Shown here: in pieces, positions 10,883 through 46,911 of the stretch
Position numbering within the stretch: the stretch's first letter is position 1
Layout: every line of letters begins with the position of its first letter
Assembly (NCBI GenBank): GCA_001787005.1
Contig: MFUV01000005.1
Location: 2,764-66,763 of the forward strand
DNA: 64,000 nucleotides
Direction: 5' to 3'
From: Candidatus Nomurabacteria bacterium RIFCSPLOWO2_01_FULL_39_18
GTDB lineage: Bacteria > Patescibacteriota > Minisyncoccia > Phycocordibacterales > UBA9973
Notes under the pieces: model-generated
The model's database searches: none
What the model was told of the DNA's origin: nothing
Seen by the model: the letters and a program-made list of their open reading frames with translations, nothing else
Made by a program: the position numbers and the translations under genes

Positions 10883-11851
10883 ATGCAAAAAGAAAGAAAA
10901 TACAAAGCAAAAAAGTCGTTAGGGCAAAATTTTTTAAAATCAGAACTGGCTTTAAAAAAAATTATTGAAGCAGGGGAGATAAAAAGGGGTGACATAATTT
11001 TAGAAATAGGACCAGGCAGAGGAGCATTGACCGAAAAACTTCTAGAAAAAGTTTACCTTGCTGGGGCGGGGCAGGGGTTGGTCATCGCAGTTGAAAAAGA
11101 CCGCGAGCTTTTTGAATTTTTAAAAACAAAATTTAAAAAAGAAATAGAGCAACGCTCTCTTGTACTAGTATATGGAGACATATTAAAATTTGATGCAAAA
11201 AAAACTGTTTTGAAGTTTTTTTCAGGTCCTCGGATTCCTGGGTCCCTCCCCCAGCCAGACCATTCAAAAAACTCAAAATCGTCTGATTTTAAAATAATTG
11301 CCAACATCCCCTACAACATCACTGGAGCGATTTTGAAAAAATTTTTAGGAGGGTTAAACCAACCGACAGACATGGTATTGATGGTTCAGCAAGAAGTCGC
11401 GAGGAGGATAATGGCCCGAGATAGTAAAGAAAGTATTCTTTCGATTTCTGTGAAGGCTTATGGTGAACCAAAAATTGTTATGAAGGTGCCAGCGCGATAT
11501 TTCAGGCCTGTGCCGAAAGTAGATTCAGCGATAATCATTATAAAAAATATTTCTCGCAAAATTTTTTCAGTATTACCCCCTCCGCCCAGAAAGTCTAATT
11601 GGGCACCTCCCCCTTATCAAGGGGGAGGTAGTAAAGAAGTTCAAGGTAAAACCTTGAACAGCCATGAATTTGAAGAGAAATTCTGGGAAATAGTGAAAGC
11701 GGGCTTTGCCCATAAGAGAAAAAAGCTCTCCAGTAATTTAAAAAATCTAAAAGACGGAAGCAAGGCTTCCGTCTCGAGCCTGGGAGATAGGAGAGCGGAA
11801 GATTTAACACTAGAAGACTGGATTGCGTTGTGTAAAAAGTGTTATAATTAA
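10883..11851 (+). CDS. rsmA: 16S rRNA (adenine1518/1519-N6)-dimethyltransferase RsmA/KsgA
   Basis: SLGQNFL, ILEIGPGRGALTEKLL, ANIPYNITGAIL. At 322 aa it is longer than typical RsmA because of two GC-rich in-frame inserts (11221-11268 and 11598-11634). Confidence 0.9.
   Translation: MQKERKYKAKKSLGQNFLKSELALKKIIEAGEIKRGDIILEIGPGRGALTEKLLEKVYLAGAGQGLVIAVEKDRELFEFLKTKFKKEIEQRSLVLVYGDILKFDAKKTVLKFFSGPRIPGSLPQPDHSKNSKSSDFKIIANIPYNITGAILKKFLGGLNQPTDMVLMVQQEVARRIMARDSKESILSISVKAYGEPKIVMKVPARYFRPVPKVDSAIIIIKNISRKIFSVLPPPPRKSNWAPPPYQGGGSKEVQGKTLNSHEFEEKFWEIVKAGFAHKRKKLSSNLKNLKDGSKASVSSLGDRRAEDLTLEDWIALCKKCYN
11221..11268. repeat. Intragenic GC-rich element in rsmA (tcaggtcctcggattcctgggtccctcccccagccagaccattc), inverted copy of the pcrA element core
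   Basis: 37 nt identical, and about 48 nt near-identical, to the reverse complement of 9891-9927. Flanked by an A/T-rich imperfect inverted repeat. Encodes FFSGPRIPGSLPQPDHSK in RsmA. Confidence 0.65.
11598..11634. repeat. GC-rich hairpin element cctccccc-ttatcaa-gggggagg inside rsmA
   Basis: 8-bp G/C stem with loop TTATCAA. The same loop and a near-identical stem (ccccctcc-ttatcaa-ggaggggg) occur at 19463-19485 inside another gene. Translated as PPPYQGGGS. Confidence 0.55.
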
Positions 11852-12004
11852 ACCATAATTAAATCAGATTGGTTAAAATACAAAAAAAGGATTCTTTTAA
11901 TCGTTTTTGCGGTTGTTTTTATTGTTGTACTTTTTTTTCTGAAAACAACCTCTGTATTCAAAAATGAAGAAAAACAAGAAAATCTAGCAGAACAACAAGA
12001 GGGG

Positions 12005-12799
12005 TTGGTTTATAATACTGAAACGCTCGGAGATATAATAAATAAAGACACCGATGGAGACGGAATACTGGACTGGGAAGAGAGTTTGTGGGGAACCAGC
12101 CCGATGGAGAGGGAAACTACTCCCGGAATATTAGATAGTGTGGCAATAGAAGAACTAAAGGCGCAAAAAGCAGAGGAAGCAGAATTGAACGGGGAATTAG
12201 AAAGTCTAGACACAGAAAATTTGACTCAAACAGACAGATTCTCAAGAGAACTTTTCTCTACAATCAGCGCACTCTCTCAAAATGGGTCTGTGGATCAGGT
12301 GGTTATTGACGAATTGAGCACTTCTCTGGCCGAACAAATAAAGAACTCCCCAGTTCAAAAGATATTTCTATTGTCTGATCTAAAAATCATACAAGATGAT
12401 AATTTCCAGAGTATAAAAAATTACGACGATACTCTAAATATTATTCACCAAAAACACCCCGCGGAACGAACTGTAATGGATGTATTGCAAGATTTCGCAG
12501 CTGATGAAGAAAATGTTGATACTGCTGTCCTGTCGGAACTTGACCCTATAAATGCACAGGTACGAGGGATAATAGGAGACATGGTTGAAATGAATGTCCC
12601 GCAATCCCTGGCAGTTTTGCATTTGGATATCGTGAATGGGCTCCAAAGACTATCCGAAAATATAGATAATATAAAATTTTTCGACACCGATGTCATTGTT
12701 GCGCTTGGCGCCATAAGTCAATATGAAGCAAACACCGATCTATTAGCAGAAGCAACCATAAACCTCACGGACGCCATTAATCAAAAATTGAGTAATTAA
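12005..12799 (+). CDS. Hypothetical membrane-anchored protein with a DTDGDGILDWEE calcium-binding-like motif; the N-terminus probably extends to a TTG at 11868 across a homopolymer frameshift
   Basis: ORF from the track. The reading frame stays open upstream to 11876 and there encodes a classic signal-anchor (KKRILLIVFAVVFIVVLFFL). It joins the TTG at 11868 only if the A7 run at 11882-11888 is really A8. Confidence 0.55.
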   Translation: MVYNTETLGDIINKDTDGDGILDWEESLWGTSPMERETTPGILDSVAIEELKAQKAEEAELNGELESLDTENLTQTDRFSRELFSTISALSQNGSVDQVVIDELSTSLAEQIKNSPVQKIFLLSDLKIIQDDNFQSIKNYDDTLNIIHQKHPAERTVMDVLQDFAADEENVDTAVLSELDPINAQVRGIIGDMVEMNVPQSLAVLHLDIVNGLQRLSENIDNIKFFDTDVIVALGAISQYEANTDLLAEATINLTDAINQKLSN

Positions 12800-12814
12800 A
12801 TAAAAAACGATATA

Positions 12815-12854
12815 ACCCGGTAGTAGATCTTTGGTAAAAGTCTCACTACCGGGT
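12815..12854. repeat. REP-like hairpin element, copy 2 (acccggtagtagatctttggtaaaagtctcactaccgggt)
   Basis: Same termini as copies 1 and 3. It directly abuts a TATAAT and the start of the 12869 gene. Confidence 0.5.
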
Positions 12855-12868
12855 ATAATATAAGGAAA

Positions 12869-15490
12869 ATGACAGAAAAAAATAGTAGAATGGTAAAATT
12901 TATTTCCTCGCTTTTAATTATCGCAACAATAGCACCGAGTATTTTACTGTCCAAACCGAAACAAGCGGAAGCCTTCGGCGCTACATGGTTAACGGATATA
13001 TTTACTGGCGCAAATGTAGTCCCCGCTACGGTAAGCGCAGGGCAAGAAACTACTCAAACCGCATTGAAGCTTAAAGATGTCGCCAAAGAAATTTTGAAGC
13101 AAATTGTCATGACCATTCAGAGAAGACTTCTGGCGGAGATGACTAAAGGCATGGTGAACTGGATAAATAGAGGCTTCCATGGATCACCGCTTTTCCTGGA
13201 AAATCCAAAATCTTTCTTCCAGGATATTGCGAAATATGAAGTTAAAACTTTAATAGACACCTTCGGCTACGATAGCCGGAGATTTCCTTTTGGCAGAGAC
13301 TTTGCTTTAAATACAATCAATAGTTATAAAAGGCAACTGGGAGATAATGCTGAATATACTTTAAGCAGGGTGATTAACGATCCTGCTTTATTAAATAATT
13401 ATAGAAACGACTTCGACTTCGGAGGCTGGAATGGATTTTTAATAAACACACAATACCAGCAAAATAATTATATCGGGTTTCAACTACTAGCGACAGAAGA
13501 ATTAGCTGGGAGATTACAAGGCACAGTTGAAAATAATGCGCAGAAAGTACAGACTACTCTTGATCAAGGGATGGGTTTCTTGTCTCCGCAAACTTGCGCG
13601 GATAATGGCGGGAATAATGAATACAATAAAATTGTCGCAAATCAGTTTAAGCGACCAAGCTTTAAACCTGTAACAAAATTCGACCCGACTCCCATGCTAT
13701 TAGAATGTGTGGATGGTGGTCCAAACCCACCACCATATTGTGAGGCTGCATTTCAAGGATATCAAGCCGAAGTGCAACTGTACCAGGAAAGACTAGCAAA
13801 AGAAAGAGCTGCCTGGGCAACAAAAAACACTTGTAAAAACTTAGTGGCAACTACTCCTGGTTCTGTAGTAGCGAATCAAATAACGAACGCCATGGGGTCA
13901 AATTTCAGGCAGACCGAACTTGGAGCGGCTTTGGGCAACAGCATGTCTGCTATTTTTGACGCTTTACTTAACCAGTTCTTGAGTAAGGGTTTGAATGCCT
14001 TGGCAACCACAAAAAATCCTCCAAAACCACCACCGGACGATTGGTCTTATGGCGGTCTGACCCTAGGCAGTCCGACAGATGAAACTAACGAGGAATGGGA
14101 TTCCGGACCGGATGAAGTTGTCATTTTGGATGATTTCGGGAAACAATTAGTTGGAGAAATAGTTCCAGGTAATTCTGCTAGCTCAATTTGTATTATGCAA
14201 ACTGGATTGGCGCTACCGGGTTTCACGCAAGCGGCTTGTATAGCAGCAGGCGGAATATGGGTACCTGCTAATTCGGTATACGTACCCGGCGATATAGCAA
14301 ATACGCAAAAAGAATTGGCATTGATGGATAATCTGGATCCAAATAATCCTTATGTCAACGCATCTGGCGCATTTCCTCCAGGATGTACATCAAATCTAGG
14401 ATTCAACGCAACGACTGGCCTGCCATGCAATAGCGGAATAACGCAAATAATAAGCGGCACTTGGCCCAAGATCAGAGAACTCGACATGTGTCTGCCAGGT
14501 CCAGACTTTGGTTGGAAAGACAGGTTGCTGGATGAAATGGTGAGAAACAGCAAAAAACTTCAGGAAAGAGCAAGTGACAGTGACGGGCAAAAAGCTGCGG
14601 AGGCCGACCTAGTTCTTAAGGAATTAAAATTTGCCGTAAATTCTTTCAGGGATTGGATAAATAATAAAATGATAACGGAACTCCCAAATTCTATAATTTA
14701 TATGGACGCGGTAGATGAAATTGAAGACTTATATCAGCAATCAGAGGAACTCACCGACAGAAAAAGGGGAAAGACCCAGGCTTTGATACGACTTCAGGTA
14801 ATAAAAACACAATTGCTTGAATTGAAAAATCTCCTAGCTTCGCAAAATCCACCCCTCATCCAACCAGCCGCGGGATCAGCCGAAGAAAAAACTTTAATTG
14901 CGCTAAAAAAACAATACAACGCCATTCGGACTTCAATCTCGAGCCCTGTTAGCGTGGATGAAATAAAAAATGAATTATTTTTCTCGGTAGATAAATTGGC
15001 CAGACTAAATTCATTGATTACACAATGCAAGACTGAAAAATCGGCTAAACCCGCCATCTCAGAACAAAATGTATTTTGTGAGGCACCGATTAAGGGTGGT
15101 TATTCCCATGGAACATTCATTGGTCCTGACACTACAACTCCTAAATTGCCAATGGTAAATGCAAAAAAGGTGTATACGTGGAGAAGCTGGCTGGGACTGA
15201 AGGGTAATCAGGTCAACATAGATCTGAAATGTGACATTATCTACAAAGCCACTTTGGTAGATTACAAAAAGGATTTGCCAGGTTTAAATAGTGGTCTCAC
15301 GGATCCATTACCAAGTACGGGTGGTACCACACAATTTGGTTCTTGCACTTATGAAGAAACAGGTATGACACAGGATGAATGTACCGCTAGCGGAGGATCA
15401 TGGAATATCTCAACCGATATTTGTACTCGCACGGACCAAAATGTAACAGAAGAAAACTGCACCGCAAATGGAGGAACGTGGGAACAATAA
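12869..15490 (+). CDS. Large secreted Cys-rich protein (signal peptide), hypothetical; T4SS-cluster associated
   Basis: 873 aa. N-terminal signal peptide MVKFISSLLIIATIAPSILLSKPKQAEA. Many paired cysteines. C-terminal CTASGGSW / CTANGGTW repeats. Confidence 0.6.
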   Translation: MTEKNSRMVKFISSLLIIATIAPSILLSKPKQAEAFGATWLTDIFTGANVVPATVSAGQETTQTALKLKDVAKEILKQIVMTIQRRLLAEMTKGMVNWINRGFHGSPLFLENPKSFFQDIAKYEVKTLIDTFGYDSRRFPFGRDFALNTINSYKRQLGDNAEYTLSRVINDPALLNNYRNDFDFGGWNGFLINTQYQQNNYIGFQLLATEELAGRLQGTVENNAQKVQTTLDQGMGFLSPQTCADNGGNNEYNKIVANQFKRPSFKPVTKFDPTPMLLECVDGGPNPPPYCEAAFQGYQAEVQLYQERLAKERAAWATKNTCKNLVATTPGSVVANQITNAMGSNFRQTELGAALGNSMSAIFDALLNQFLSKGLNALATTKNPPKPPPDDWSYGGLTLGSPTDETNEEWDSGPDEVVILDDFGKQLVGEIVPGNSASSICIMQTGLALPGFTQAACIAAGGIWVPANSVYVPGDIANTQKELALMDNLDPNNPYVNASGAFPPGCTSNLGFNATTGLPCNSGITQIISGTWPKIRELDMCLPGPDFGWKDRLLDEMVRNSKKLQERASDSDGQKAAEADLVLKELKFAVNSFRDWINNKMITELPNSIIYMDAVDEIEDLYQQSEELTDRKRGKTQALIRLQVIKTQLLELKNLLASQNPPLIQPAAGSAEEKTLIALKKQYNAIRTSISSPVSVDEIKNELFFSVDKLARLNSLITQCKTEKSAKPAISEQNVFCEAPIKGGYSHGTFIGPDTTTPKLPMVNAKKVYTWRSWLGLKGNQVNIDLKCDIIYKATLVDYKKDLPGLNSGLTDPLPSTGGTTQFGSCTYEETGMTQDECTASGGSWNISTDICTRTDQNVTEENCTANGGTWEQ

Positions 15491-15556
15491 GAAAGTTTTA
15501 AAGTGAAAAGTTATAAAGTTTGTAAAGTAAATGAACATAAAGTAGTGAAAAAAATT

Positions 15557-15949
15557 ATGACTAAAAAAGAAATAAAAAATGCTGTAAAATATTGGAAGGA
15601 AACATCTAAAAGAGATTATGGCACCATGCTTGGGCTTTTTAAGATTAAACGCTACCCAGAAAGCCTGTTCTTTGGGCATATTGTTTTGGAAAAAACTCTT
15701 AAAGGTCTAGTTGTTCAAGAAACAGGGGAACAAGCGCCTTATATACATGATTTGCTTCGATTGGCAAAATTAGCAGAAATCAATTTAAATAAAGAGGAGT
15801 TTAACTTATTAAAAATTGTTAGTACTTTCAACATTCGAGCTAGATACCCTGAGCAAAAGTTGAAACTATATAAAATATGCACAGAAAAATATACAAAAGA
15901 TAAATTGGATAAAATTATCACATTATATAAATTATTATGTCAAAATTAG
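15557..15949 (+). CDS. HEPN-like (nucleotidyltransferase substrate-binding-like) protein, partner of the downstream MNT
   Basis: The track ORF begins at 15503, but 15503-15556 matches a leader motif shared with the rsmA upstream region. An in-frame ATG at 15557 (MTKKEIKNAVKYWKE..) is the more likely start. The gene overlaps the next ORF by 13 nt. The canonical HEPN Rx4-6H motif is not obvious. Confidence 0.45.
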   Translation: MTKKEIKNAVKYWKETSKRDYGTMLGLFKIKRYPESLFFGHIVLEKTLKGLVVQETGEQAPYIHDLLRLAKLAEINLNKEEFNLLKIVSTFNIRARYPEQKLKLYKICTEKYTKDKLDKIITLYKLLCQN

Positions 15950-16251
15950 AAGCAAAGAAAATAATTAGAAACTATGTAAGAAAACTAAGATCTGAAAAAT
16001 ACCCTGTTTCGGCGGCTTATTTGTTCGGCTCCTATGCAAAAAATACCCAGCGCAAGTGGAGTGATATTGATGTGGCAATAATTTCTCCAAAATTTAAAAT
16101 TCGTTTTGGGAAAAGTTACATGAGACTTTGGGATTTTCGTGAAGAAGTGGACAGTCGCATTGAACCACATGGCTTCACAAAGACAGATTTTAAAAATTTG
16201 GCTGATCCTTTAGTTTATGAAATTAGAAAGACTGGGATAAGAGTGATTTAA
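15937..16251 (+). CDS. Minimal nucleotidyltransferase (MNT) domain protein
   Basis: LFGSYAKNTQRKWSDIDVAI carries the GS...DxD nucleotidyltransferase signature. 104 aa. Confidence 0.75.
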   Translation: MSKLEAKKIIRNYVRKLRSEKYPVSAAYLFGSYAKNTQRKWSDIDVAIISPKFKIRFGKSYMRLWDFREEVDSRIEPHGFTKTDFKNLADPLVYEIRKTGIRVI

Positions 16252-16260
16252 TGTAAATAA

Positions 16261-18645: not shown

Positions 18646-18710
18646 TAGTGAAGTGGGAAGTTGAATAAGAGAGAAAGATAGGACATCATTAGAAAATGAA
18701 TTAAAAAAAA

Positions 18711-19697
18711 ATGGATAAAGAAGAATTACAACAGAAAATAGCATTGTACTACTCAAAGCTTCCACCAAAAGCGCAAGCGGTTTTTTCCAGTATGAAATGG
18801 CTTGAGACTATAAAGAGCATAAGTGAAAAGTACGGCTTAAATGACAAACAGAAAGAGATACTCGGCACGGAAACAACTTTGGTGCTTTTGGGCATAATCG
18901 ATATAATCAAGTATGAAGAAATATTGATAGAAGAACTAGCATTATCGAAAGAGTCTGTAGATAAGATGCTTTCAGAAATAAACGATCTAATTATAAATAA
19001 TATACGACCCGAACTCATTGATGCATTCAACGCAAATAAAAATTCTCTAGAAAAAGAAAACCCAGAAATTGAACCAGTCTTAGACACACGTTTTGGGAAA
19101 TTATCACCGGATTTGGAAAAGATAATTGACGAATCCAATTATCAAGACATTCTCTATGGTATTGGCAAAGAGAAAAATTTCAGCGTTACGAAGATGGGAG
19201 CGCTTGAAAGAGCAACCACTGATCTAATAATGGGTACTATTCATCCAGATGAATTCGAGAATGTGCTAGAGAATAATTTAGAATTACCGCTAGAAAAAGT
19301 CAGAGAACTAGTAAATATTATCAACGAAAGAATTTTCAAAAAAATACGGGAAGAATTGATAAAGAATGTTGAGAGAAAAAAGATATTCGCGAACAAAAAA
19401 GCTGAAGAAAAACAGGATACGCAAGTATTGGGCGCCCACGGCATCGAGATTGTCGAGAATCCCCCCCTCCTTATCAAGGAGGGGGCGGGGGGTGGTAATT
19501 CAGAAGAGAACCACCCCGCCTCTGGCACCCCTCCTCAACAAGGAGGGGAAGAAACGCATCCCATATTAGCGCAAAAGTTATCCGGCCCTTATCAGGCTCC
19601 AGTAGTCAAGACGGACCACTCCTTGCAAAATCTTCAGCCTTCTTCTGAACAACAAAATAAGCCTGTAATTGATCCTTACCGCGAAATTCCGGAGTAG
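18711..19697 (+). CDS. Hypothetical protein (T4SS cluster) carrying a GC-rich palindromic insert near its C-terminus
   Basis: 328-aa ORF. The region 19461-19560 is GC-rich and palindromic (ccccctcc-ttatcaa-ggaggggg ...) and is translated in frame as PPLLIKEGAGGGNSEENHPASGTPPQQGGEE. Confidence 0.55.
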   Translation: MDKEELQQKIALYYSKLPPKAQAVFSSMKWLETIKSISEKYGLNDKQKEILGTETTLVLLGIIDIIKYEEILIEELALSKESVDKMLSEINDLIINNIRPELIDAFNANKNSLEKENPEIEPVLDTRFGKLSPDLEKIIDESNYQDILYGIGKEKNFSVTKMGALERATTDLIMGTIHPDEFENVLENNLELPLEKVRELVNIINERIFKKIREELIKNVERKKIFANKKAEEKQDTQVLGAHGIEIVENPPLLIKEGAGGGNSEENHPASGTPPQQGGEETHPILAQKLSGPYQAPVVKTDHSLQNLQPSSEQQNKPVIDPYREIPE

Positions 19698-19826
19698 AAT
19701 CATGCATCCCGTTAGAGATTAATTAGTTAAAAGTAATAAAAAAGTAAAAATATTATGATAAGTTTAAATAAATTATTAATGGTTATTAAAAGAACGGAAG
19801 TCTAGAGACTTCCTATCTCTAACGGG

Positions 19827-20258
19827 ATGCAATTCAAAGTTCCACAATTTTTAGATATAGAAGACAAAATTTTTGGCCCCTTTACTTTTAAGGAATTTAT
19901 TTACTTAGCAGGTGGAGCCGGTCTTTGTTTTGTGCTTTATAAACTGCTGGGTTTCTTCCTAGGCATTATCCCAATGCTTGCGATAGCTGGGCTCTCCTTA
20001 GCGCTTACTTTCTATCGACCAAACAATAAACCTTTCAGCAACATGATCGAAGCAGGATTCAACTATTTTACACAAGATAAACTTTATATTTGGAAGAGAC
20101 GTAAAAATAAAATCGACAAAAACAAGCCAGAAACGAATGGAGTGGAAGAAAGAGAAAGAGAAATGTTGGAAAATGCGGTGAGGCTGGGTAGAAATAAATT
20201 ACGGGATTTGGCTTGGAGTTTGGATGTGCTTGATTTAAGTAAACATCAAGGAAATTAA
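19827..20258 (+). CDS. Small membrane protein, VirB3/PrgI-like
   Basis: 143 aa with a hydrophobic hairpin (LAGGAGLCFVLYKLLGFFLGIIPMLAIAGLSLALTFY). Sits just upstream of the VirB4 ORFs. Its ATG directly abuts the right arm of an inverted repeat (19814-19829). Confidence 0.45.
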   Translation: MQFKVPQFLDIEDKIFGPFTFKEFIYLAGGAGLCFVLYKLLGFFLGIIPMLAIAGLSLALTFYRPNNKPFSNMIEAGFNYFTQDKLYIWKRRKNKIDKNKPETNGVEEREREMLENAVRLGRNKLRDLAWSLDVLDLSKHQGN

Positions 20259-20392
20259 CAATTAAAAATATGGTCCCGTTAGAAGTCGCGGTCGCAGTTT
20301 AAAAAATATAAATATGTTAATCAAAAAAATGAAAATTAATAGTATAATAAAGCTAAATTGCGATGAATTGACCGCGACCTGCTTCTAACGGG

Positions 20393-21040
20393 ATGGCATT
20401 AAAAGCAAAAGCAACTCAAGAGTTCGTACCGATAAAAGAAGTCCGCGATGGAGTGATCGTGCTCAAAGACGGCGGACTGCGAGCTATCATACTTGCTAAT
20501 TCAGTTAATTTATCCCTGAAGTCTGATGACGAACAGAAAGCAACAATAATTCAATTCCAAAGTTTTTTGAATACCCTCGACTTCGCTATTCAGATATCAG
20601 TGCAGTCCAGAAGGTTGGATATCAGGCCCTATCTTTTGCTTCTAGAAGACAGGATGAAAGTTCAAACTGAATCTTTGCTTAAACTGCAGACAAGAGAATA
20701 TATTGAATTCATTAGAAACTTCACCGAATCAGTAAGTATAATGACCAAAAGTTTCTTCGTGATAATACCCTACACTCACACAGTTTTAAAATCAGACTCC
20801 GGAATTTTCGGCGGAATATCAAAAATATTCAACAGAAAAAACAAAGAAGAGGTGAAAATAGCGAAACAAGAAGACTTTGAGGAAAAGAGGTCCCAGCTAG
20901 AAGAGCGGGTGGGGGTGATTAAACAAGGGCTTAATCGCTGTGGCATAAAGTCTGCCGAGCTCGGCACGGAAGAAATCGTGGAAGTATTTTATAAAGTTTT
21001 TAACCCCGGAGAAGTAGAGGGGAAAATTAAGCTGGAATAA
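20393..21040 (+). CDS. VirB4/TrbE N-terminal domain (CagE_TrbE_VirB-like) encoded as a separate ORF
   Basis: VPIKEVRDGVIVLKDGGLRAIILANSVNLSLKSDDEQKATIIQFQSFLNTL.. resembles the N-terminal domain of VirB4. It ends 7 nt before the ATPase ORF, in a different frame. Confidence 0.55.
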   Translation: MALKAKATQEFVPIKEVRDGVIVLKDGGLRAIILANSVNLSLKSDDEQKATIIQFQSFLNTLDFAIQISVQSRRLDIRPYLLLLEDRMKVQTESLLKLQTREYIEFIRNFTESVSIMTKSFFVIIPYTHTVLKSDSGIFGGISKIFNRKNKEEVKIAKQEDFEEKRSQLEERVGVIKQGLNRCGIKSAELGTEEIVEVFYKVFNPGEVEGKIKLE

Positions 21041-21047
21041 AAATATT

Positions 21048-22901
21048 ATGGGAATTTTTGATAAATTATTAAATAGGAAAAAAGATAGCTCAGCTTTGAG
21101 TAATACAAATGCTTCACTCTTGGCTGTGCTTCCAGAAGAAATATATGAAGCGGCCAATCTGGAGCTTCAGGATATCATCGCGCCATCAGCGTTAAAGATT
21201 GAATCAAAGTCAATAAACTTGGGCGATAAAATCGCTCGTACTTTTTTCATAATATCTTACCCGAGGTTTTTGACCGACAATTGGTTTTCTCCAATAATCA
21301 ACCTAGATAAAGTTTTTGATATTTCAATTTTCATTCATCCGATAGACACATCATTGATGTTACGACAATTCCAGAAAAAGGTCGCTGAAGTGCAAAGCCA
21401 GATAAATGTGCGCGAGTCAAAAGGCATGGTGCGCGACCCAATGCTCGACACCGCCTATCAAGACCTAGAAGGGCTCCGTGATAATCTGATACAAGCGCAG
21501 GAAAAGATGTTTGATGTGGGTATCTACATTACAATTTACGCCGACAATGATCTGGAGCTTTTCAAAATTGAAAATGAGATAAAATCAATCCTCGAATCAA
21601 GATTGATCTATATCAAACCAGCGCTCTTCCAGCAAGAAGAAGGTTTCAAAAGCGTTATCCCGACAAATACTGATCTTTTAAATATTCATCAAAAATTAAA
21701 TTCGGAGCCACTCTCAAGTATTTTTCCTTTTATTTCTTTTGACCTGACTTCCGACAGAGGCATTCTCTACGGCATTAACAGGCACAACTCAAGTTTAGTC
21801 ATTTTTGATCGTTTTTCGCTGGAGAATTACAACTCAGTGACCTTCGCCAAATCCGGTTCAGGAAAATCTTATGCCACAAAGCTGGAAATTCTGAGATCCC
21901 TGATGTTTGACATTGAGGTTATGGTGATAGACCCAGAGCGAGAATACGAATTCCTAGCTGAAGCGGTTGGCGGAAGATATTTTAATATTTCTCTTTCTTC
22001 AGACCACCATATGAACCCTTTTGATCTACCCATGCCACGAGAAGATGAGACAGCCGAAGATGTTTTGCGCAGTAATATTATTAATTTAGTCGGACTTTTC
22101 CGATTAATGTTGGGCGGACTGACGCCAGAAGAAGATTCAATGGTTGATCGAGCTATTTCAGAAACTTACGCGATAAAAGATATCACCCCAGAAGCGGATT
22201 TCTCAAATATCGAGCCCCCGCTTCTTTCGGACTTCGAAATGGTTCTGGGCGGGATGGACGGCAGTGATTCGCTCGTGGCTCGCTTGGCAAAATACACCAA
22301 GGGTTCATGGGCAACATTTTTAAACAGACCTTCGAACGTGGACATTGATAAAAAATTTGTCGTATTTTCTATTCGTGATATGGAAGACGAACTGAAGCCT
22401 GTGGCAATGTATATCGTCATGCATTATATCTGGAACTCAATCCGTAAAAATTTAAAGAAGCGTCTGCTCGTGGTGGATGAAGCCTGGTGGATGATGAAGT
22501 CCGAAGATACCGCGTCATTTCTCTATTCCATCGCCAAACGGGGCAGAAAATATTATCTTGGGCTCGCAACCATTACTCAAGATGCGGCAGATTTCATGAA
22601 ATCTTCCTACGGCGTGCCAATCATTACCAACTCTTCTATCCAGCTTCTCTTGAAACAATCTCCCACTACGATGGATATTTTACAGCAAACATTCAACCTT
22701 ACTGATGAGGAAAAATATTTGCTTCTAGAGTCTGGGGTGGGAGAGGGAATATTTTTCGCGGGGCTGAAGCATGTCGCTATAAAAATTATTTCTTCTTATA
22801 CAGAAGATCAGATTATCACTTCTGATCCTTCACAAATATTATCAAATAGAAAAGCCAAAGAAGAGCATGAGGCCCTGGAGCTGGCGGGAGACAAATTATA
22901 A
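21048..22901 (+). CDS. VirB4-like type IV secretion ATPase (AAA-like domain)
   Basis: Walker A FAKSGSGKSY. Walker B/DE LLVVDEAWWMM. 617 aa. Combined with the preceding ORF it is about 830 aa, the size of a full VirB4. Confidence 0.85.
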   Translation: MGIFDKLLNRKKDSSALSNTNASLLAVLPEEIYEAANLELQDIIAPSALKIESKSINLGDKIARTFFIISYPRFLTDNWFSPIINLDKVFDISIFIHPIDTSLMLRQFQKKVAEVQSQINVRESKGMVRDPMLDTAYQDLEGLRDNLIQAQEKMFDVGIYITIYADNDLELFKIENEIKSILESRLIYIKPALFQQEEGFKSVIPTNTDLLNIHQKLNSEPLSSIFPFISFDLTSDRGILYGINRHNSSLVIFDRFSLENYNSVTFAKSGSGKSYATKLEILRSLMFDIEVMVIDPEREYEFLAEAVGGRYFNISLSSDHHMNPFDLPMPREDETAEDVLRSNIINLVGLFRLMLGGLTPEEDSMVDRAISETYAIKDITPEADFSNIEPPLLSDFEMVLGGMDGSDSLVARLAKYTKGSWATFLNRPSNVDIDKKFVVFSIRDMEDELKPVAMYIVMHYIWNSIRKNLKKRLLVVDEAWWMMKSEDTASFLYSIAKRGRKYYLGLATITQDAADFMKSSYGVPIITNSSIQLLLKQSPTTMDILQQTFNLTDEEKYLLLESGVGEGIFFAGLKHVAIKIISSYTEDQIITSDPSQILSNRKAKEEHEALELAGDKL

Positions 22902-22928
22902 AGCAAGGATAAATGGTATAATCGAATT

Positions 22929-23918
22929 ATGAAATTAAAATTTTTATTACTATCTTTGATCACTATGCTTGTAATATTTATGGTGATTTCTGCGTCGGGG
23001 GTAAATGCCGCCTCATCTAGTAGCATTTCGGTTGATATGATACCTTCTAGCCCGGCTCCAGGCGAGAATGTAAGCATTACTTTGAGCAGTTACGCCAATA
23101 ATCTAGATAGTGTTTTAATAACCTGGTCTCTTGATGGAAGAACCGTTTCATCTGGGATTGGCAAAAAATCATTTTCTCTGACGGCTCCAGGCGCTGGCTC
23201 TGAAGTTGTCGTTACAGCCATTATCTCCCTGCCAGAAGGTAGTGTGGAGAAAAGAATGATAATAAGATCAAGCCTAATGGTGCTACTCTGGCAGGCGAAT
23301 GATTCTTATGTCCCGCCTTTTTATAAAGGCAAGGCAATGCCCTCCGTAGGTAGTGAGATAAAAGTGGTAGCCATGCCAGAAATAAAAGTTGGTTCGGACG
23401 GGACGGTTAACCCCAAAAGCATGACCTATTCTTGGAAAGAAGATGACACCAACAACGTAGAGGGTTCGGGTTATGGCAAAAATTCTTTTGTTTTTATAAA
23501 TGATTATTTAGAGGATTCTAACAATATAGGAGTAACGGCATCGACCATAGACCAGACATATTCATCTGAAGCCAGCATAAATGTGGGAATAGTAGAACCG
23601 AAAATATTATTTTATAAATATGATAATAGCCTCGGGATATTATGGGAGAAAATACTCCCTGACTTCCACAGAATACAAGATACAGAGATAGTGGAAGCGA
23701 CGCCTTACTTTATTTCACCGAAAGATATCCGAAATCCAACATTGATATGGAGTTGGTTTATTAATGACACGCAAATAAATACTCCAATTTTTAGGAAAAA
23801 TGTAATGCCTCTCCGGGTAGAGAGTGGAACTTCCGGGATATCACGACTGCGACTTCGAATTGAGAATCAATACAAAATTTTCCAGACAACAGATGGGGAA
23901 ATAGATTTAGAATTTTGA
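22929..23918 (+). CDS. Secreted hypothetical protein (signal peptide)
   Basis: MKLKFLLLSLITMLVIFMVISASGVNA signal peptide, then a Ser/Thr/Val-rich region suggesting beta-rich structure. Confidence 0.55.
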   Translation: MKLKFLLLSLITMLVIFMVISASGVNAASSSSISVDMIPSSPAPGENVSITLSSYANNLDSVLITWSLDGRTVSSGIGKKSFSLTAPGAGSEVVVTAIISLPEGSVEKRMIIRSSLMVLLWQANDSYVPPFYKGKAMPSVGSEIKVVAMPEIKVGSDGTVNPKSMTYSWKEDDTNNVEGSGYGKNSFVFINDYLEDSNNIGVTASTIDQTYSSEASINVGIVEPKILFYKYDNSLGILWEKILPDFHRIQDTEIVEATPYFISPKDIRNPTLIWSWFINDTQINTPIFRKNVMPLRVESGTSGISRLRLRIENQYKIFQTTDGEIDLEF

Positions 23919-23996
23919 GTGAAATTTAATGAGTGAAATGAATATAAATTTCCTCATCCCGTACTAAATTTTAGATTAAATGATATTAAAATAAAA

Positions 23997-25049
23997 ATGA
24001 TTATAAAAGATGAAAATAAATTAAGATTGAGAACTACAAGTAAAATTTTAGTACTGGGATTTATTTTTATACTCATAGGATTTTTTAGTCCGAGTCTAGA
24101 TGTAAACGCTGTGGAACAATACGGAACTTGTAATTGGGTTGAAGCTGAACAGAAAAGGAAGGAAGAAAATTATCTACAAGCAAATTGTTTAGCAAAGGGC
24201 AATACCGCAACTTGGGTAGGTTACTACTATCCCTTGGCTCCATTGCCTGGCTTGGGGAACAGGGAAGATGGAGGAATTGACACCGCGCAAATAGACAGCA
24301 CCGGAAAAAGCATTGCCTTGGGTGCATACCTAAACACAATGATAAAAATAATCATCGGAATTGCCGCAATTTTGTCTGTGGTTATGATTGTGATAGGGGG
24401 GATAGAATACATGACCTCTGAATTAATATCTAGTAAGGAAGCGGGTAAAGAAACAATAAAGAACGCGCTCTTCGGACTTCTGGTAGCTCTTGGCGCTTAT
24501 GCGCTTTTGAATACAATAAATCCGGACTTGCTGAAATCCGACCTAGACGTCCCAGGTGTGACTGTCACAGTAGATCTTGAAGCTGATGTCCCACAGACTT
24601 ATGACCCAGCAACCAGAAAATATGCCAATGGAGCTCTCTTTAACGCGCCATGGAATGACACAGTTGGGGGAATTACCCCAGCATGTACAACAGAAACTGG
24701 TACAGGATGTTTGCCAAGATCAGTTACTGCAAAACAACCAGAATGTTCTACTATTGGTCAACAAAATTGCACTTCAACAAGAGGTCTAAATACTAGTAAT
24801 TTGAGAACAATACAATATGGTTGTGGATGTAACGTATTAATCACTGGTGGAACAGAATGGTGGCTACACGGCGGGCGAAGTGGAAGTACGACCCATCAGT
24901 CTGGAAGTACGACCGTCGACCTTAGAACAACACCTGAATTGACTAGATATCTAATGGGTGGGACAACAGCTCCGGTCGCAGGACGAAGATACCCAACACC
25001 AGTTGGATCGGCATTGTTTGAAGGAAATCATTGGCACATTGGTCCATAA
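23997..25049 (+). CDS. VirB2/TrbC-pilin-like domain (two adjacent hydrophobic helices) fused to a Cys-rich extracellular C-terminal domain
   Basis: Helices KIIIGIAAILSVVMIVIGGIEYM and ALFGLLVALGAYALLNTINP, separated by a short polar loop, as in T4SS pilins. The C-terminal 150 aa have 8 Cys. Confidence 0.45.
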   Translation: MIIKDENKLRLRTTSKILVLGFIFILIGFFSPSLDVNAVEQYGTCNWVEAEQKRKEENYLQANCLAKGNTATWVGYYYPLAPLPGLGNREDGGIDTAQIDSTGKSIALGAYLNTMIKIIIGIAAILSVVMIVIGGIEYMTSELISSKEAGKETIKNALFGLLVALGAYALLNTINPDLLKSDLDVPGVTVTVDLEADVPQTYDPATRKYANGALFNAPWNDTVGGITPACTTETGTGCLPRSVTAKQPECSTIGQQNCTSTRGLNTSNLRTIQYGCGCNVLITGGTEWWLHGGRSGSTTHQSGSTTVDLRTTPELTRYLMGGTTAPVAGRRYPTPVGSALFEGNHWHIGP

Positions 25050-25130
25050 AATAATTTTACTTGTCCCGTACTAAATTTTTGATTACGGGGTATAATGATA
25101 AAAATTAATAAATAAAATTTTAGTATCGGG

Positions 25131-26495
25131 ATGTCAAAAAGAAACTTCACACTTTTAATAATAATTTTAATTCTAGGAACAGTCGGGTTTTTTGTATTTC
25201 TATATTCTCGTGGAGAGACACCTAGAGGAGAGGGAGGCGAGGGCACTAATTTCATCGCAAGGTTTAATCCATTCAGCAACAAAAAACCAGCGCCGGAAGA
25301 CACAGGGCCCACAGAGGATACCTCTTCACCTATAGAAGATCCTGAAGAAAAAATGCTGGAAGTAGAACTAAAAAAAGTTTCAAGTATGGAAATCGCTGGG
25401 TTTGGAGTATTTACGAAAGAAAGATTGAAAGAGATGAACCCCTCTCCAGCCCTCCCCTTGTCAGGGGAGGAAGAGAATCCTGCCCCCCCTGCTAAGGGGG
25501 GTTCGGGGAGTCTGAAACCCACACCGCCACCGACTGAATTTGCAACAGCAGTAAGATATGTGGCGAGAGCTACTGGGAACATTTATCAGACTTTCGCAGA
25601 CAAAATAATTGAGCGAAAGTTTTCTGGAACATTAATACCTAAAGTATACGAAGCGCATTTCGGCAATCATGGGGGATCTGTGGTGATGCGATACTTAAAG
25701 GGGGATGAAAAGACCATAGAAACTTTTTTCAGTGTCCTCCCGAAAGAATATTTGGGCGGTGATGCAACGGAAAACAATGAGATAAAAGGATCATTCTTAC
25801 CTAATAACATAAAAGATATAAGCCTTTCATCTGATACTTCTAAAATATTCTACCTTTTTGAGAGTGAAAGTAATTTAGGAGAAAGCATCATAGGCACAAC
25901 CTTGAGCTTGTTGGACAATAAAAAGGTTCAGATATTTGATTCTCCTTTTACGGAATGGCTGTCATCCTGGCCAAATAATAAAATTATCACCCTTTCCACT
26001 AAGCCTTCTGCGAACACTCCAGGATACATGTACAGCATTGATGGAGTTGGTAAAAACTTAACTAAAATCTTGGGTGATATAAATGGATTAACTACGCTCA
26101 CAAGTCCGGACGGAAAGTTGGTTCTTTACAGTGATAATAATCTAACTTCATATATTTACCATACGGATACTAAAAGTTCGGATTTATTGGGGATAAAAAC
26201 TCTGCCAGAAAAATGTGTCTGGGGGGGCGGGAGTGATATTTTTTACTGCGCTGTACCGAAATTAATTGGCGCTAGCCAATATCCAGATACTTGGTACCAG
26301 GGAGAAGAGTCATTTTCTGACCAAATTTGGAAAATAGATGTTGAAACAGGAAATGCCACCATGATCGAAGACCCGATCATGGCTCTGGGGGGAGAGGATG
26401 TTGATGGCATTAAGCTTGCTTTAGACGAAGGAGAGAGTTATCTATTTTTTGTAAACAAAAAAGATTCTTTTTTGTGGGAACTAAAGCTGAAATAA
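25131..26495 (+). CDS. Membrane-anchored protein with TolB-like beta-propeller repeats; hypothetical
   Basis: N-terminal TM helix LLIIILILGTVGFFVFLY. A GC-rich in-frame insert at 25452-25510. Repeats such as SPDGKLVLYSDNN. Confidence 0.55.
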   Translation: MSKRNFTLLIIILILGTVGFFVFLYSRGETPRGEGGEGTNFIARFNPFSNKKPAPEDTGPTEDTSSPIEDPEEKMLEVELKKVSSMEIAGFGVFTKERLKEMNPSPALPLSGEEENPAPPAKGGSGSLKPTPPPTEFATAVRYVARATGNIYQTFADKIIERKFSGTLIPKVYEAHFGNHGGSVVMRYLKGDEKTIETFFSVLPKEYLGGDATENNEIKGSFLPNNIKDISLSSDTSKIFYLFESESNLGESIIGTTLSLLDNKKVQIFDSPFTEWLSSWPNNKIITLSTKPSANTPGYMYSIDGVGKNLTKILGDINGLTTLTSPDGKLVLYSDNNLTSYIYHTDTKSSDLLGIKTLPEKCVWGGGSDIFYCAVPKLIGASQYPDTWYQGEESFSDQIWKIDVETGNATMIEDPIMALGGEDVDGIKLALDEGESYLFFVNKKDSFLWELKLK

Positions 26496-26578
26496 ATCAC
26501 CACCCCTGACCCCTCCTCGAAAAGGAGGGGAGGTCCCCTCTCCCCCTGCGAAGGGGGAGAGCTTGAAAGGCGAGGGGG
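26496..26578. terminator. Pair of GC-rich hairpins between convergent genes (cccctcc-tcgaaaa-ggagggg and ctctccccc-tgcgaa-gggggagag)
   Basis: Perfect 7- and 9-bp G/C stems immediately after the stop codons of 25131..26495(+) and jag(-). They belong to the same GC-rich palindrome family found inside genes. Confidence 0.5.
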
Positions 26579-27073
26579 TTAGATAGCGCCAATGTATTTG
26601 ATCACTACTCGGCGAGACGGTCCGAAACCAACTGATTCAGTTTTTAGATCCGTGGCATCGGACAAAAATTCATGTACCACCCGTCGTTCGAAAGCTGACA
26701 TCGGATCCACTTCTATGTTTGATTTGAAATAGCGCGCTCGCTCCGACATCATATGTGCCACGGCACGAACATTATCAACACGTTTCTTTTGGAAACCATT
26801 AATGTCAATTAGAATTTCTGGCCACATGTCGGACTTGTGGGAATCCCACAAGTCCGACATGTGGTCTCTCTTGGCTTCAATCATTCTGCGAGCAAGATGG
26901 TTTAAGGCATTGAGCGCTTCACCATCGCGAGAGATGAAAAGATGCGGTTCATTTACCTCAACTGAAAACCATGTATTAGTACCATTGTCTTCAGTAATGG
27001 TAATTTTGTTGAGCATCGTTCCAGTTTTCTCAATCAATTCTTTTATTAAATTTTGTATTGTTTCCTTGTCCAT
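26579..27073 (-). CDS. jag: Jag/KhpB RNA-binding protein (KH + R3H domains)
   Basis: R3H motif RRVVHEFLSD. Position immediately downstream of yidC in the conserved rnpA-yidC-jag arrangement. Confidence 0.85.
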   Translation of the reverse strand: MDKETIQNLIKELIEKTGTMLNKITITEDNGTNTWFSVEVNEPHLFISRDGEALNALNHLARRMIEAKRDHMSDLWDSHKSDMWPEILIDINGFQKKRVDNVRAVAHMMSERARYFKSNIEVDPMSAFERRVVHEFLSDATDLKTESVGFGPSRRVVIKYIGAI

Positions 27074-27077
27074 AAGA

Positions 27078-27815
27078 TTATTTTACTATCATTGTCGTTT
27101 CCTTTTTCTTTCTACTCACATAAATCTGCTGACCTACTGTAAATATATTATTCGTAATCCAGTATAAAGCGATAGCTCCGGAAATAGTGTAAGAAATAAA
27201 AACCACAACAAATGGAAAAATATATTTCATCTGCATGTTCATGCTTTTACTAAAACTCTCCCCGAAAGAAGGGGTGGAAGAAGTAGTGGGAGGAGGAGAG
27301 GGTGGTTTGGGCATGAAGTGGGCCTGTAAGTATTGAGATACACCGGCTAAAATTGCCAAAACAAAACTCTTTTGACTTATATCAAGAACTCCCAAGAAAA
27401 GCATGTTGATCTTTTCTGGGACATGAACGAAGGAATAAAGCAACCCTCCTTGGAAATCTATCCCTTTCAAAAAAACATAGTACAGCGCGAAAATGATTGG
27501 AATTTGAATCAAAACCAAAAGACACCCGGAAAATGGATTAGTTTTGTGTTGCTTGTAAAGTTCGAAGGTCCTCCGTGCTTGTTCTTCTTTAGAGACCCCG
27601 CTACTTTTTATCTTATTTAATTCTGGGGCAAGCACATTCATGGCGGCCTGGCTTTCGATAGATTTCTGCGAAAGAGGGAAAAGGATAATTTTGACAATAA
27701 TAGTCAGAATAATGACAGCGATACCCACATCTCCTCCGGGGACAATAGAGACTAAAAAAGCCAGAGCATTCAATAATGGCTTATATAAAAGAAAATTCCA
27801 TAAATTTGAGAGCAT
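27078..27815 (-). CDS. yidC: Membrane protein insertase YidC (short, Oxa1-like form)
   Basis: MLSNLWNFLLYKPLLNALAFL...IVKIILFPLSQKSIESQAAM..., 5 TM segments. A GC-rich loop insert at 27235-27310 is translated as PPSPPPTTSSTPSFGE. Confidence 0.9.
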   Translation of the reverse strand: MLSNLWNFLLYKPLLNALAFLVSIVPGGDVGIAVIILTIIVKIILFPLSQKSIESQAAMNVLAPELNKIKSSGVSKEEQARRTFELYKQHKTNPFSGCLLVLIQIPIIFALYYVFLKGIDFQGGLLYSFVHVPEKINMLFLGVLDISQKSFVLAILAGVSQYLQAHFMPKPPSPPPTTSSTPSFGESFSKSMNMQMKYIFPFVVVFISYTISGAIALYWITNNIFTVGQQIYVSRKKKETTMIVK

Positions 27816-36731: not shown

Positions 36732-36740
36732 ATACAAACT

Positions 36741-36768
36741 AAAACACCCCGAGCGGGGTGTTTTAGTT
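36741..36768. terminator. Intrinsic terminator hairpin after tyrS (cacccc-gagc-ggggtg + TTTTA)
   Basis: 6-bp G/C stem with a 4-nt loop followed by a T tract. Could work in both directions. Confidence 0.7.
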
Positions 36769-42725: not shown

Positions 42726-42744
42726 AAGTGGTATAATTTTCACA

Positions 42745-46835: not shown

Positions 46836-46911
46836 AATACTTGTCCCGTACTAAATTTTTGATTATGACACATGACCATTATTAATAAAAACTTAAAATT
46901 TTAGTACCGGG

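Follow-up and report, generated by a model that had tools for sequence, protein, structure and literature searches.

A 64,000-nucleotide (nt) stretch of the genome of Candidatus Nomurabacteria bacterium RIFCSPLOWO2_01_FULL_39_18 (contig MFUV01000005.1; hereafter the window; G+C approximately 39%) contains short, perfect G/C-rich hairpins both within open reading frames (ORFs), including that of rsmA, and in the gap between two convergent genes, raising the question of what kind of element can occupy both settings. We find that seven of these hairpins are copies of a known class of repeat, the class-II purine-motif intrastrand triplex motif of the BoxC/PIT type; the defining feature of the class, a third G-rich arm, was overlooked in the initial annotation of the window. 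They are probably dispersed repeats of a selfish or instability-prone kind, which lodge in intergenic gaps and in permissive protein linkers and which spread between related genomes.

Architecture of the seven copies

Each hairpin is perfect, with a 5′ arm containing only C and T (the pyrimidine or Y arm), a 3′ arm containing only G and A (the purine or R arm), and a stem of 7–10 bp. In all seven copies a further G-rich segment mirrors the R arm, with 0–1 mismatch in seven triads; hairpin and third G-rich arm are treated here as one unit, the intrastrand triplex motif (TM). The copies are listed below with the strand of their G-rich side (three on the + strand, four on the − strand).

TM1, in rsmA: 11576..11629, − strand; Y arm CCTCCCCC, loop TTGATAA, R arm GGGGGAGG, 22-nt linker, mirror arm GGAGGGGG; hairpin 11605-11629, on the + strand ACCTCCCCC-TTATCAA-GGGGGAGGT, read PPPYQGGGS.
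TM2, in ORF 18711-19697 (+): 19463..19497, + strand; Y arm CCCCCTCCTT, loop ATC, R arm AAGGAGGGGG, linker C, mirror arm GGGGG(G)TGGTA, laid out as CCCCCTCCTT-atc-AAGGAGGGGG-c-GGGGGTGGTA with 0 mismatches; hairpin 19463-19485, CCCCCTCC-TTATCAA-GGAGGGGG.
TM3, in ORF 18711-19697 (+): 19510..19548, − strand; on the + strand ACCACCCC-GCCTCTGGCA-CCCCTCCT-CAACA-AGGAGGGG; hairpin 19528-19548, on the + strand CCCCTCC-TCAACAA-GGAGGGG.
TM4, in ORF 25131-26495 (+): 25438..25470, − strand; on the + strand CCCCTCTCC-AG-CCCTCCCC-TTGTCA-GGGGAGG; hairpin 25451-25470.
TM5, in ORF 25131-26495 (+): 25483..25511, + strand; CCCCCCT-GCTA-AGGGGGG-TTC-GGGGAGT; hairpin 25483-25501.
TM6, intergenic: 26499..26530, − strand; CCCCTCC-ttttcga-GGAGGGG-tca-GGGGTGG with 0 mismatches, on the + strand CCACCCC-TGA-CCCCTCC-TCGAAAA-GGAGGGG; hairpin 26510-26530.
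TM7, intergenic: 26538..26579, + strand; CTCTCCCCC-TGCGAA-GGGGGAGAG-CTTGAAAG-GCGAGGGGGT; hairpin 26538-26561.

Hairpins of this type occurred at a mean of 0.02 (maximum 1) in 200 dinucleotide-preserving shuffles of the window, and no mirror third arm was found beside a Y–R hairpin in any of the 200. The earlier proposal that the hairpins form one nucleotide-level family, beyond their G+C composition, is supported. TM1 has a stem unlike that of the other copies, and its third arm (CCCCCTCC on the + strand, 11576-11583) differs correspondingly, in mirror order, with 0 mismatches in seven triads according to the motif finder and eight of eight triads matched by eye. The TM1 linker contains a mini-hairpin (GCCCA..TGGGC), the translation of the copy on the + strand is PPPPRKSNWAPPPYQGGG, and the predicted DNA fold has z = -6.8. 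TM3 (fold z = -5.9) is the inverted partner of TM2, and the two make up a paired composite (19463-19548; hairpin-GGGGGGTGGT, then AATTCAGAAGAGA, then ACCACCCC…hairpin) which is read PPLLIKEGAGGGNSEENHPASGTPPQQGGE. TM4 and TM5 lie in a variable linker of their host, where their translation is NPSPALPLSGEEENPAPPAKGGSGS; TM5 is the weakest copy, with one mismatch in its best seven-triad register and two in the register read by eye. Loop 1 is 3–7 nt long throughout, and the linker (loop 2) is 1–4 nt in TM2, TM4, TM5 and TM6 (7 nt for TM4 in the finder's register). TM6 begins 4 nt past the stop codon of ORF 25131 and the last base of TM7 overlaps the jag stop codon, so that the two convergent genes, ORF 25131-26495 (+) and jag (26579-27073, −), are separated by an 83-nt gap (26496-26578) which the pair fills with its flanks.

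The initial annotation had listed eight hairpins, of which seven are real. Perfect stems around the shared loop TTATCAA were confirmed in rsmA and in the ORF of the type IV secretion system (T4SS) cluster, as was the reading of these two copies in different frames (CCT CCC CCT TAT CAA vs CTC CTT ATC AAG) into Pro/Gly-rich peptides; the hairpins in the 25131 gene and in the intergenic gap likewise hold. The eighth candidate, a yidC segment (27235..27310, − strand, PKPPSPPPTTSSTPSFGE), is neither a hairpin nor a member: its CCCC/GGGG stem is only 4 bp, its fold energy is -3.7 kcal/mol (z = +1.08 vs shuffles), and it goes undetected by the motif finder. In 20 YidC homologues the P/S/T-rich loop that it encodes has a constant length.

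The copies span 11.5–26.6 kb of the window, and the motif finder returned none in the 27–64 kb region. According to Pfam matches and reading of the sequence, the genes of the window comprise uvrD, rsmA, a Gram-positive-like cluster of the conjugation or T4SS type (PrgI, a TraG/VirB4-like ATPase, T4SS pilin), and then jag, yidC, yidD/rnpA, dnaA and dnaN. Five of the seven copies lie in frame inside genes and two are intergenic.

Assignment to the intrastrand triplex class

The best-known member of the class is BoxC of Escherichia coli, also known as the PIT element (Hoyne et al. 2000). Intrastrand triplex motifs of the class-II purine type consist of a Y arm, an R arm and a reverse-Hoogsteen arm (Holder et al. 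2015, PMC4666352); in that work BoxC (PIT) is termed TMECO and has the consensus CCCTCNCCC N3-6 GGGNGAGGG N3 GGGNGAGGG, with a loop 1 of 3-6 nt and a loop 2 of 3 nt, whilst the general ITxF definition allows loops of 1-6 nt. Triplex formation by TMECO was shown in vitro, its arms are more conserved than its loops, its copies in K-12 are always intergenic and often in inverted pairs, and TMECO loci are unusually variable among strains, with local instability; TMECO is not linked to transposases, phages or plasmids, and G/C-rich motifs of the class are abundant in Enterobacteria, cyanobacteria, Neisseria and Pseudomonas (PMC4666352).

The window copies belong to this class on structural grounds, since complementary homopyrimidine (5′) and homopurine (3′) arms on one strand, and an antiparallel mirror third arm (G opposite G; A or T opposite A), are each present in seven of seven. 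As in TMECO, arms of approximately 9 nt make up a unit of around 35-40 nt, in which a linker, of around 3 nt in many copies, precedes the mirror G-rich arm; the arms are conserved and the loops variable, inverted pairs are frequent, and many dispersed copies occur in locally variable sequence, with no linked transposase among the Pfam families listed. They differ from TMECO in their arms (CCCCTCCTT/AAGGAGGGG/GGGGTGGTT and CCTCCCCC variants, vs CCCTCNCCC/GGGNGAGGG), in linkers that are sometimes long or contain a mini-hairpin, in their in-frame residence within genes, and in their occurrence on viral contigs. The strict TMECO consensus has no match in the window, and four matches in three of 134 fetched loci. 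Since the structure fits and the TMECO consensus is absent, the window copies form a sister sequence family within the class and are not TMECO itself. Intergenic location does not hold for five of the seven window copies, nor for 50 of 88 usable metagenomic copies described below; it is a descriptive trait of the E. coli family which lies outside the structural definition. A permissive Rfam scan of the 9-28 kb region returned only sub-threshold chance matches and no known RNA family (for example whalefall-1 at 25449-25504, 18.5 bits vs a 37-bit gathering score).

The mirror rule in other phyla and in viral contigs

A scan for CCCCTCCTNNNNAAGGAGGGG, made with one genome per species, returned at least 120 loci; the matches listed include Acidobacteriota, Nitrospirota, Bacteroidota, Gamma- and Betaproteobacteria, Chlamydiota, Planctomycetota, Chloroflexota, Omnitrophota and many lineages of the candidate phyla radiation (CPR). 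Nearly all of these listed matches are CCCCTCCTT-N3-AAGGAGGGG, and the core common across phyla is CCCCTCCTT-N3-AAGGAGGGG-N3-GGGG(T/A)GGT. Among 137 listed copies of the CCCCTCCTT-N3-AAGGAGGGG form, 110 have GGGG(A/T)GG(A/T) within 30 nt on one side, compared with a single copy for the direct-order control; the linker has a mode of 3 nt with a tail at 12-22 nt, and, of 118 listed cases, 77 have GGGGTGGT as the third arm and 41 have GGGGAGGT. An initial mirror-vs-direct control (7-mers, one mismatch) did not discriminate because the arms are nearly all G, and full-arm tests were used instead. When all Y–R hairpins of all arm variants in the fetched loci are taken together, 180 have the mirror arm only and 18 the direct arm only. 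For arms other than AAGGAGGGG, the arm of the search pattern, the figures are 84 and 10, with 27 arm types favouring the mirror order and one the direct order, so that mirror rule and stem sequence vary together. With AAGGGGAGG arms, for example (11 mirror, 0 direct), the third arm follows the R arm in the position of its A/T.

In low-G+C genomes outside the CPR the copies are mainly intergenic, and a gene-orientation analysis found no consistent placement or orientation of the cross-phylum copies relative to flanking genes. In a Thiomargarita locus (L073, 7048-7312) the full motif forms tandem arrays with a period of 41 nt (CCCCTCCTTACCAAGGAGGGGTTGGGGGTGGTTAAGTTCCT repeated), so the repeat can amplify head to tail as well. 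The viral collection IMG/VR contains 54 copies in 48 stretches (L254-L301), and the mirror arm accompanies 46 of these copies, the direct-order control none; some viral contigs hold several copies, for example UViG_3300044996_000692.

A patchy in-frame insert in rsmA

Filled and empty sites can be compared for TM1, which lies within the following feature.

Insert in rsmA (gene 10883-11851, + strand): 11567..11653, + strand; in-frame insert of 87 nt which contains TM1.

The insert separates the methyltransferase domain (…NISRKIF) from the C-terminal helical domain (EEKFW…) and is joined to an AT-rich hairpin (GTTCAAGGT-aaa-ACCTTGAAC, 11639-11659) that reaches 6 nt beyond the aligned insert end. 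DNA alignment with two relatives reveals that it is present in L001 and absent from the syntenic L003. The window and L001 inserts are identical at 85 of 87 positions, against 74% over the rest of the gene, and the high-identity tract of approximately 200 nt comprises the insert plus roughly 50 nt on each side. That close relatives differ in having the insert at the same site, and that the insert is far more alike than the gene which carries it, indicates recent gain and spread between related genomes. Comparison of filled and empty sites revealed no target-site duplication.

The homologues of the window RsmA are from Nomurabacteria/Paceibacteria. The window YidC is 100% identical to a protein of Candidatus Nomurabacteria bacterium RIFCSPLOWO2_01_FULL_39_18, which likewise places the stretch in a CPR (Patescibacteria) genome. 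Ten of 29 aligned homologues have no insert at this site, and others carry different Pro/Gly-rich inserts which start at the same junction, after …RKxF, and which are TMs at the DNA level: that of L131 is BoxC-like, that of L132 is the inverted-pair composite found in the window at 19463-19548, and that of L134 is nearly the TM4 variant (AACCCCTCCAGCCCTCCCCTTGTCAGGGGAG). The AlphaFold model of RsmA (mean predicted local distance difference test score, pLDDT, 66.9) falls below 50 at residues 227–262, which correspond to the TM insert, and is also low at 60–62 and 117–132, the positions of two other insert sites. The patchiness among orthologues and the low-confidence segment agree with the initial annotation, which had suggested that intragenic copies are tolerated loops and had pointed to orthologue alignments as the arbiter; such alignments bear this out for rsmA and not for yidC, where the loop keeps its length. 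Predicted tryptic peptides across insert junctions are …EGAGGGNSEENHPASGTPPQQGGEETHPILAQK and, for RsmA, SNWAPPPYQGGGSK.

RsmA has a further small insert, of 21 nt, G-rich and in frame (11056-11076, VYLAGAGQG), which is absent from L001 and L003; a few other homologues have VHPAVAGQG, VCPAGAGQG or SEGSPCSDCS at this site.

Copies in other genes and in metagenomes

In ORF 18711 and ORF 25131 the copies occupy linkers for which the orthologues have unrelated or shorter sequence. For ORF 18711, the linker of L003 is of similar length and unrelated sequence, which indicates replacement or variability and not a clean insertion or deletion. For ORF 25131, the linker of the L126 orthologue is around 20 amino acids shorter, and that of L124 has a different sequence without TMs. 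Across approximately 204 kb of related loci, nearly all TMs are inside open frames of real genes (UvrD, RsmA, Jag, CCA-adding enzyme); jag of L124 and uvrD of L132 also carry a patchy in-frame repeat, and both the same TM variant and the same paired composite turn up again in other genes of other genomes.

A metagenome scan for AAGGAGGGG-N1-4-GGGGTGGTAATT, which represents the first half of the paired composite, gave at least 119 loci (median G+C 40%), assigned to the CPR by composition, sample types and Nomurabacteria-like protein matches, not by formal taxonomy. Amongst the listed copies far enough from contig ends, 50 of 88 (57%) lie inside long ORFs, compared with 75% of random intervals from the same loci, and approximately 43% lie outside; these figures describe loci chosen by pattern and are not genome-wide estimates. 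The host gene runs along the G-rich strand in 45 of the 50 listed intragenic copies, and a single reading frame, P(L/S)LxKEG(A/V)GGGNSK.HH…GTPPQ.GGE, is used in 40 of 46 distinct listed host ORFs, as it is in ORF 18711 of the window. This favoured frame is open in 48 of the 50 intragenic copies, vs 27 of 67 other copies, whilst one frame of the composite is always closed by GG-TAA-TT. Housekeeping Pfam domains were found in 43 host ORFs; the matches listed include RNase R (8), MnmA (4), UvrA (4), FtsK (3), LigA, TsaD and UvrB (2 each), PheS and others.

That the repeats might be tolerated because they are free of stop codons in all frames was considered and rejected: only the arms are intrinsically stop-free, since an arm of pyrimidines only, or of purines only, cannot encode a stop codon. 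The intragenic copies are open in 2–3 of six frames, near background, and the intergenic pair in five of six.

Alternative explanations

Several other readings of these repeats were weighed. The initial annotation proposed that the intergenic pair acts as a bidirectional terminator, and the element could more generally be an RNA hairpin (a terminator or 3′-end stabiliser between genes) that is merely tolerated within genes. The exact fit of TM6 and TM7 to the convergent gap, the computed stability of the stems, and the many copies in other phyla that lie just 3′ of stop codons or between convergent genes are in keeping with this, and the repeats resemble intrinsic terminators in being G/C-rich stem-loops after stop codons; they differ from them in their lack of a U tract, their cross-phylum sequence conservation, their third arm, which a terminator model leaves unexplained, and their presence inside essential genes, where, at five positions, a terminator would be harmful. 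Neither strand has a T tract after the stems (on the + strand, after 26530 or 26561), and a terminator scan of the pair was negative, whereas canonical terminator-like hairpins with T tracts exist in this genome (for example 36737-36768). Relatives point the same way: the closest relative in which the orthologous pair is present, L126 (YidC 84% identical), differs mostly within the loops and linkers of the pair, and its upstream ORF has lost the stop codon and reads through both TMs, whilst the gap of L124 (YidC 80% identical) has no TM and contains an AT-rich hairpin with T runs instead, with one TM located inside jag. Copies point either way with respect to flanking genes, and the E. coli members have no promoter or terminator activity (PMC4666352, citing earlier work of Maher's group). 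The terminator proposal for the pair is thus not supported, and a terminator or 3′-end role for the element as a whole is distinctly unlikely. At the protein level, the segments might instead be Pro/Gly linkers, or a module of the form PLLxKEGxGGGNSK…GTPPQxGGE, whose palindromy is a by-product of CCN/GGN codons. Such a module would fit the strong single-frame use (40 of 46 listed hosts), and also the way in which many contigs carry the segment at an identical site within RNase R, MnmA or rsmA, but the same architecture is found in intergenic copies of the window and of many phyla, reading frame and strand vary from copy to copy, CCC/GGG-rich codons are used within a 39% G+C genome, the mirror rule has no protein rationale, around 43% of the listed composite copies are not in long ORFs, and orthologues function without the insert; we regard this as very improbable.

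Conventional non-autonomous transposable elements, either repetitive extragenic palindromes (REPs) and their doublets (REPINs) mobilised by a REP-associated tyrosine transposase (RAYT) or MITEs (miniature inverted-repeat transposable elements) mobilised by an insertion-sequence transposase, with the mirror arm as a protein-recognition feature, would account for the frequent inverted pairs (as in REPINs and bacterial interspersed mosaic elements, BIMEs), the presence/absence polymorphism, the near-identical copies in diverged genomes, and the copies on viral contigs. The likeness extends to size and placement, the elements of the REP/BIME/REPIN group being G/C-rich palindromes of around 35 nt, often arranged as inverted doublets and often between convergent genes. 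REPs are species-specific, have a GTAG or CGTC tag and a RAYT gene, and lack a mirror third arm, whilst the arms described here are the same across many phyla. The tag given for REP superfamilies in PMC3733652 is GTAG or CGTC; in the flanks of the seven window copies, GTAG adjoins only TM1 (GGAGGTAGT) and CGTC adjoins none. No terminal inverted repeats beyond the motif were detected, the MITE hallmarks of such repeats plus a target-site duplication are missing from the filled vs empty rsmA sites, neither a transposase nor a RAYT is among the 25 of 53 Pfam families listed for 48 window ORFs, and no transposase or integrase remnants lie near the E. coli copies (PMC4666352). With tag and duplication not found, and no transposase among the families listed, a REP/RAYT or MITE route of copying is unlikely. 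A DNA-level function, such as programmed replication pausing or a recombination hot spot near the origin or the conjugation-like cluster, might be suggested by the distance of the seven copies from the rnpA/yidC/dnaA/dnaN region (4-19 kb), by their coincidence with hypervariable segments, and by the link of TMs in K-12 to local instability and to the origin-proximal halves of the replichores (PMC4666352). However, the clustering near the origin is a post hoc observation in one 64-kb window, the syntenic relative L003 has no TM in 20.8 kb, no strand bias is apparent, and a selfish or neutral repeat would be just as likely to show instability, so that we give this function hardly any credence.

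Proposed origin and spread

The explanation that we prefer is that the TMs are non-coding, structure-defined repeats, selfish or prone to instability, and not signals with a cellular job. The unit consists of a homopyrimidine arm, a loop of 3-7 nt, a homopurine arm, a linker, and a third arm of G (plus T or A) which mirrors the R arm. By analogy with TMECO, a single strand of such a unit may adopt a hairpin fold in which the third strand pairs in reverse-Hoogsteen fashion (G*G-C with T*A-T or A*A-T triads). Whereas the repeats of most phyla are placed between genes, those of this gene-dense Nomurabacteria genome persist in the few short gaps, such as that between ORF 25131 and jag, and in variable linkers of proteins, where an insert whose length is a multiple of three would be translated as a Pro/Leu/Gly/Glu-rich coil. 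Selection would then filter frame and site, such that only copies in a tolerable frame stay. Translation of the inserts is suggested by the intact reading frames and by the fact that the hosts are essential genes, and spread between genomes would most likely occur by recombination of the insert with short flanks.

Several points weigh against this explanation. Neither a copying mechanism, nor a target-site duplication, nor an enzyme was found. No triplex was detected in vivo in E. coli (PMC4666352), and the linkers of TM1 (22 nt), TM3 (10 nt) and TM7 (8-12 nt) exceed the 1-6 nt of the ITxF definition; G-quadruplex formation, or recognition of the mirror repeat by a protein, could be another cause of the symmetry. 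The strong single-frame bias and the same-site recurrence in RNase R of many genomes may stem in part from shared ancestry or from a peptide with a use, as opposed to mere tolerance, translation of the inserts is read from intact frames only, and the loci of the intragenic census were chosen via rsmA or a 21-nt pattern.

Other repeats and variable positions

The window contains further repeats, some of which occupy the same genes. A 56-nt repeat ('family B') occurs in uvrD (9882-9937) and rsmA (11216-11271) in opposite orientations, with 93% complementarity, and is read FENGLAGGGTQESEDL in UvrD and FSGPRIPGSLPQPDHSKN in RsmA; the rsmA copy is identical to that of L003 at 53 of 56 positions, vs 74% for the rest of the gene, and L001 has other sequence there. 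The uvrD copy is nested in a 23-bp perfect inverted repeat (9864-9955; GGACAGGGCTGGTGTTGCTTTTG … CAAAAGCAACACCAGCCCTGTCC; DNA fold -35.4 kcal/mol, z = -8.4) at a position where the UvrD of relatives has hypervariable inserts: L132 has two TM clusters in uvrD, one just 5′ of the annotated start and the other aligned to this site, whilst L001 and L131 have other repeats here. A 43-nt perfect palindrome in jag (26822-26864; 20-bp stem, loop AAT, read …HMSDLWDSHKSDMWP…) falls in the Jag linker (amino acids 68–85), which harbours a TM in L124 and is shorter in L126; this linker is another insertion hot spot used by different palindromes. The repeat-derived peptide modules ERTLGRSDGDGQRKFSAENFRGESEN and FFSLRTAKRNS.L.KI. 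recur at unrelated protein positions (uvrD of L131 and L001; RsmA of P0029 and P0066), which suggests that several small intragenic repeat families exist in these genomes.

Elsewhere, a perfect palindrome with a 23-bp stem (42676-42725; AAGTATACCCCCACACTTATTTT-ATTC-AAAATAAGTGTGGGGGTATACTT) lies in the overlap of the divergent ORFs 40970-42691 (−) and 42664-45135 (+), and an inverted repeat with 34-nt arms is found at 40862-40895 / 40952-40985. The hairpins at 36737-36768 and 62075-62109 are of the canonical bidirectional terminator-like type, with A and T tracts on both sides. A repeated region (TCCCGTACTAAATTTT…) is present at 23951-24060, 25058-25132 and 46838-46913, at the 5′ ends of ORFs 23997, 25131 and 46912, and is followed 60-90 nt on by an inverted partner (AAAATTTTAGTAC.GGGAT). 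This partner coincides with the start codon in ORFs 25131 and 46912, and in ORF 23997 lies approximately 40 nt within the frame. The region may serve as a promoter, operator or 5′-untranslated-region structure common to the three.

Within the conjugation-like cluster, a HEPN and nucleotidyltransferase gene pair (15503-16251) has no counterpart in the syntenic clusters of L003 and L131, and the L124 cluster carries a 23S_rRNA_IVP (four-helix-bundle) gene instead; this looks like a position for variable cargo. ORF 27870-29606 (578 amino acids, around 34% G+C, no Pfam match) lies between yidC and yidD/rnpA, which are adjacent in the relatives L124, L126 and L127. It shares a 78-nt stretch of 71% identity with ORF 56367-58121, and is for this reason probably an inserted paralogue.

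Relation to selfish DNA in Rickettsia and implications

The closest behavioural parallel is that of the Rickettsia palindromic elements (RPEs), which Ogata et al. reportedly described in 2000 under the title 'Selfish DNA in protein-coding genes of Rickettsia'. RPEs are 100–150 bp long, AT-richer, restricted to Rickettsia and without a triplex-type third arm. As with RPEs, the repeats considered here are short and palindromic, reside in a reduced, gene-dense genome both in frame in housekeeping genes and between genes, would be translated as extra surface segments (an RPE trait), and are patchy among orthologues. An in-frame palindromic repeat that is patchy in orthologues was found for rsmA, for jag of L124 and for uvrD of L132, alongside the 43 housekeeping hosts. 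The likeness is one of behaviour and not of membership, size and composition setting the two apart; the in-gene habit, known for RPEs, is not known to have been described for the triplex repeat class. In the searchable literature, which leaves most subscription journals outside, we found no report of palindromic or triplex repeats in coding regions of CPR/Patescibacteria. The class itself is known; what appears to be new is its occurrence in the CPR and on viral contigs and, above all, its in-frame residence in housekeeping genes with a preferred frame.

The hairpins are thereby given a precise identity, as triplex-type repeats of a class whose biology has been unexplained since BoxC was found in the 1990s, and the reach of that class is extended to ultra-small CPR bacteria and viral contigs. 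They would provide a second, independent case of selfish DNA in protein-coding genes after that of Rickettsia. Annotation and alignment of CPR proteins are affected, since repeat-derived inserts inflate protein lengths and create spurious similarity between unrelated proteins, and the natural pairs of filled and empty sites offer material for asking whether triplex-forming DNA promotes insertions, deletions or recombination in vivo. The repeats also bear on models of genome streamlining. We put at about even the chances of a wider reading, in which TMs in Paceibacteria/Nomurabacteria, and probably in other CPR bacteria, are Rickettsia-like selfish DNA that resides in the linkers of essential genes (RsmA, UvrD, Jag, RNase R, MnmA, UvrA/B, FtsK, LigA, PheS), is held almost only to one reading frame, as a recognisable peptide module (PLLxKEGxGGGNSK..GTPPQxGGE), moves between related genomes with short flanks and, together with at least two other small repeat families found at the same hot spots, would be a main source of lineage-specific insertions in CPR proteins.

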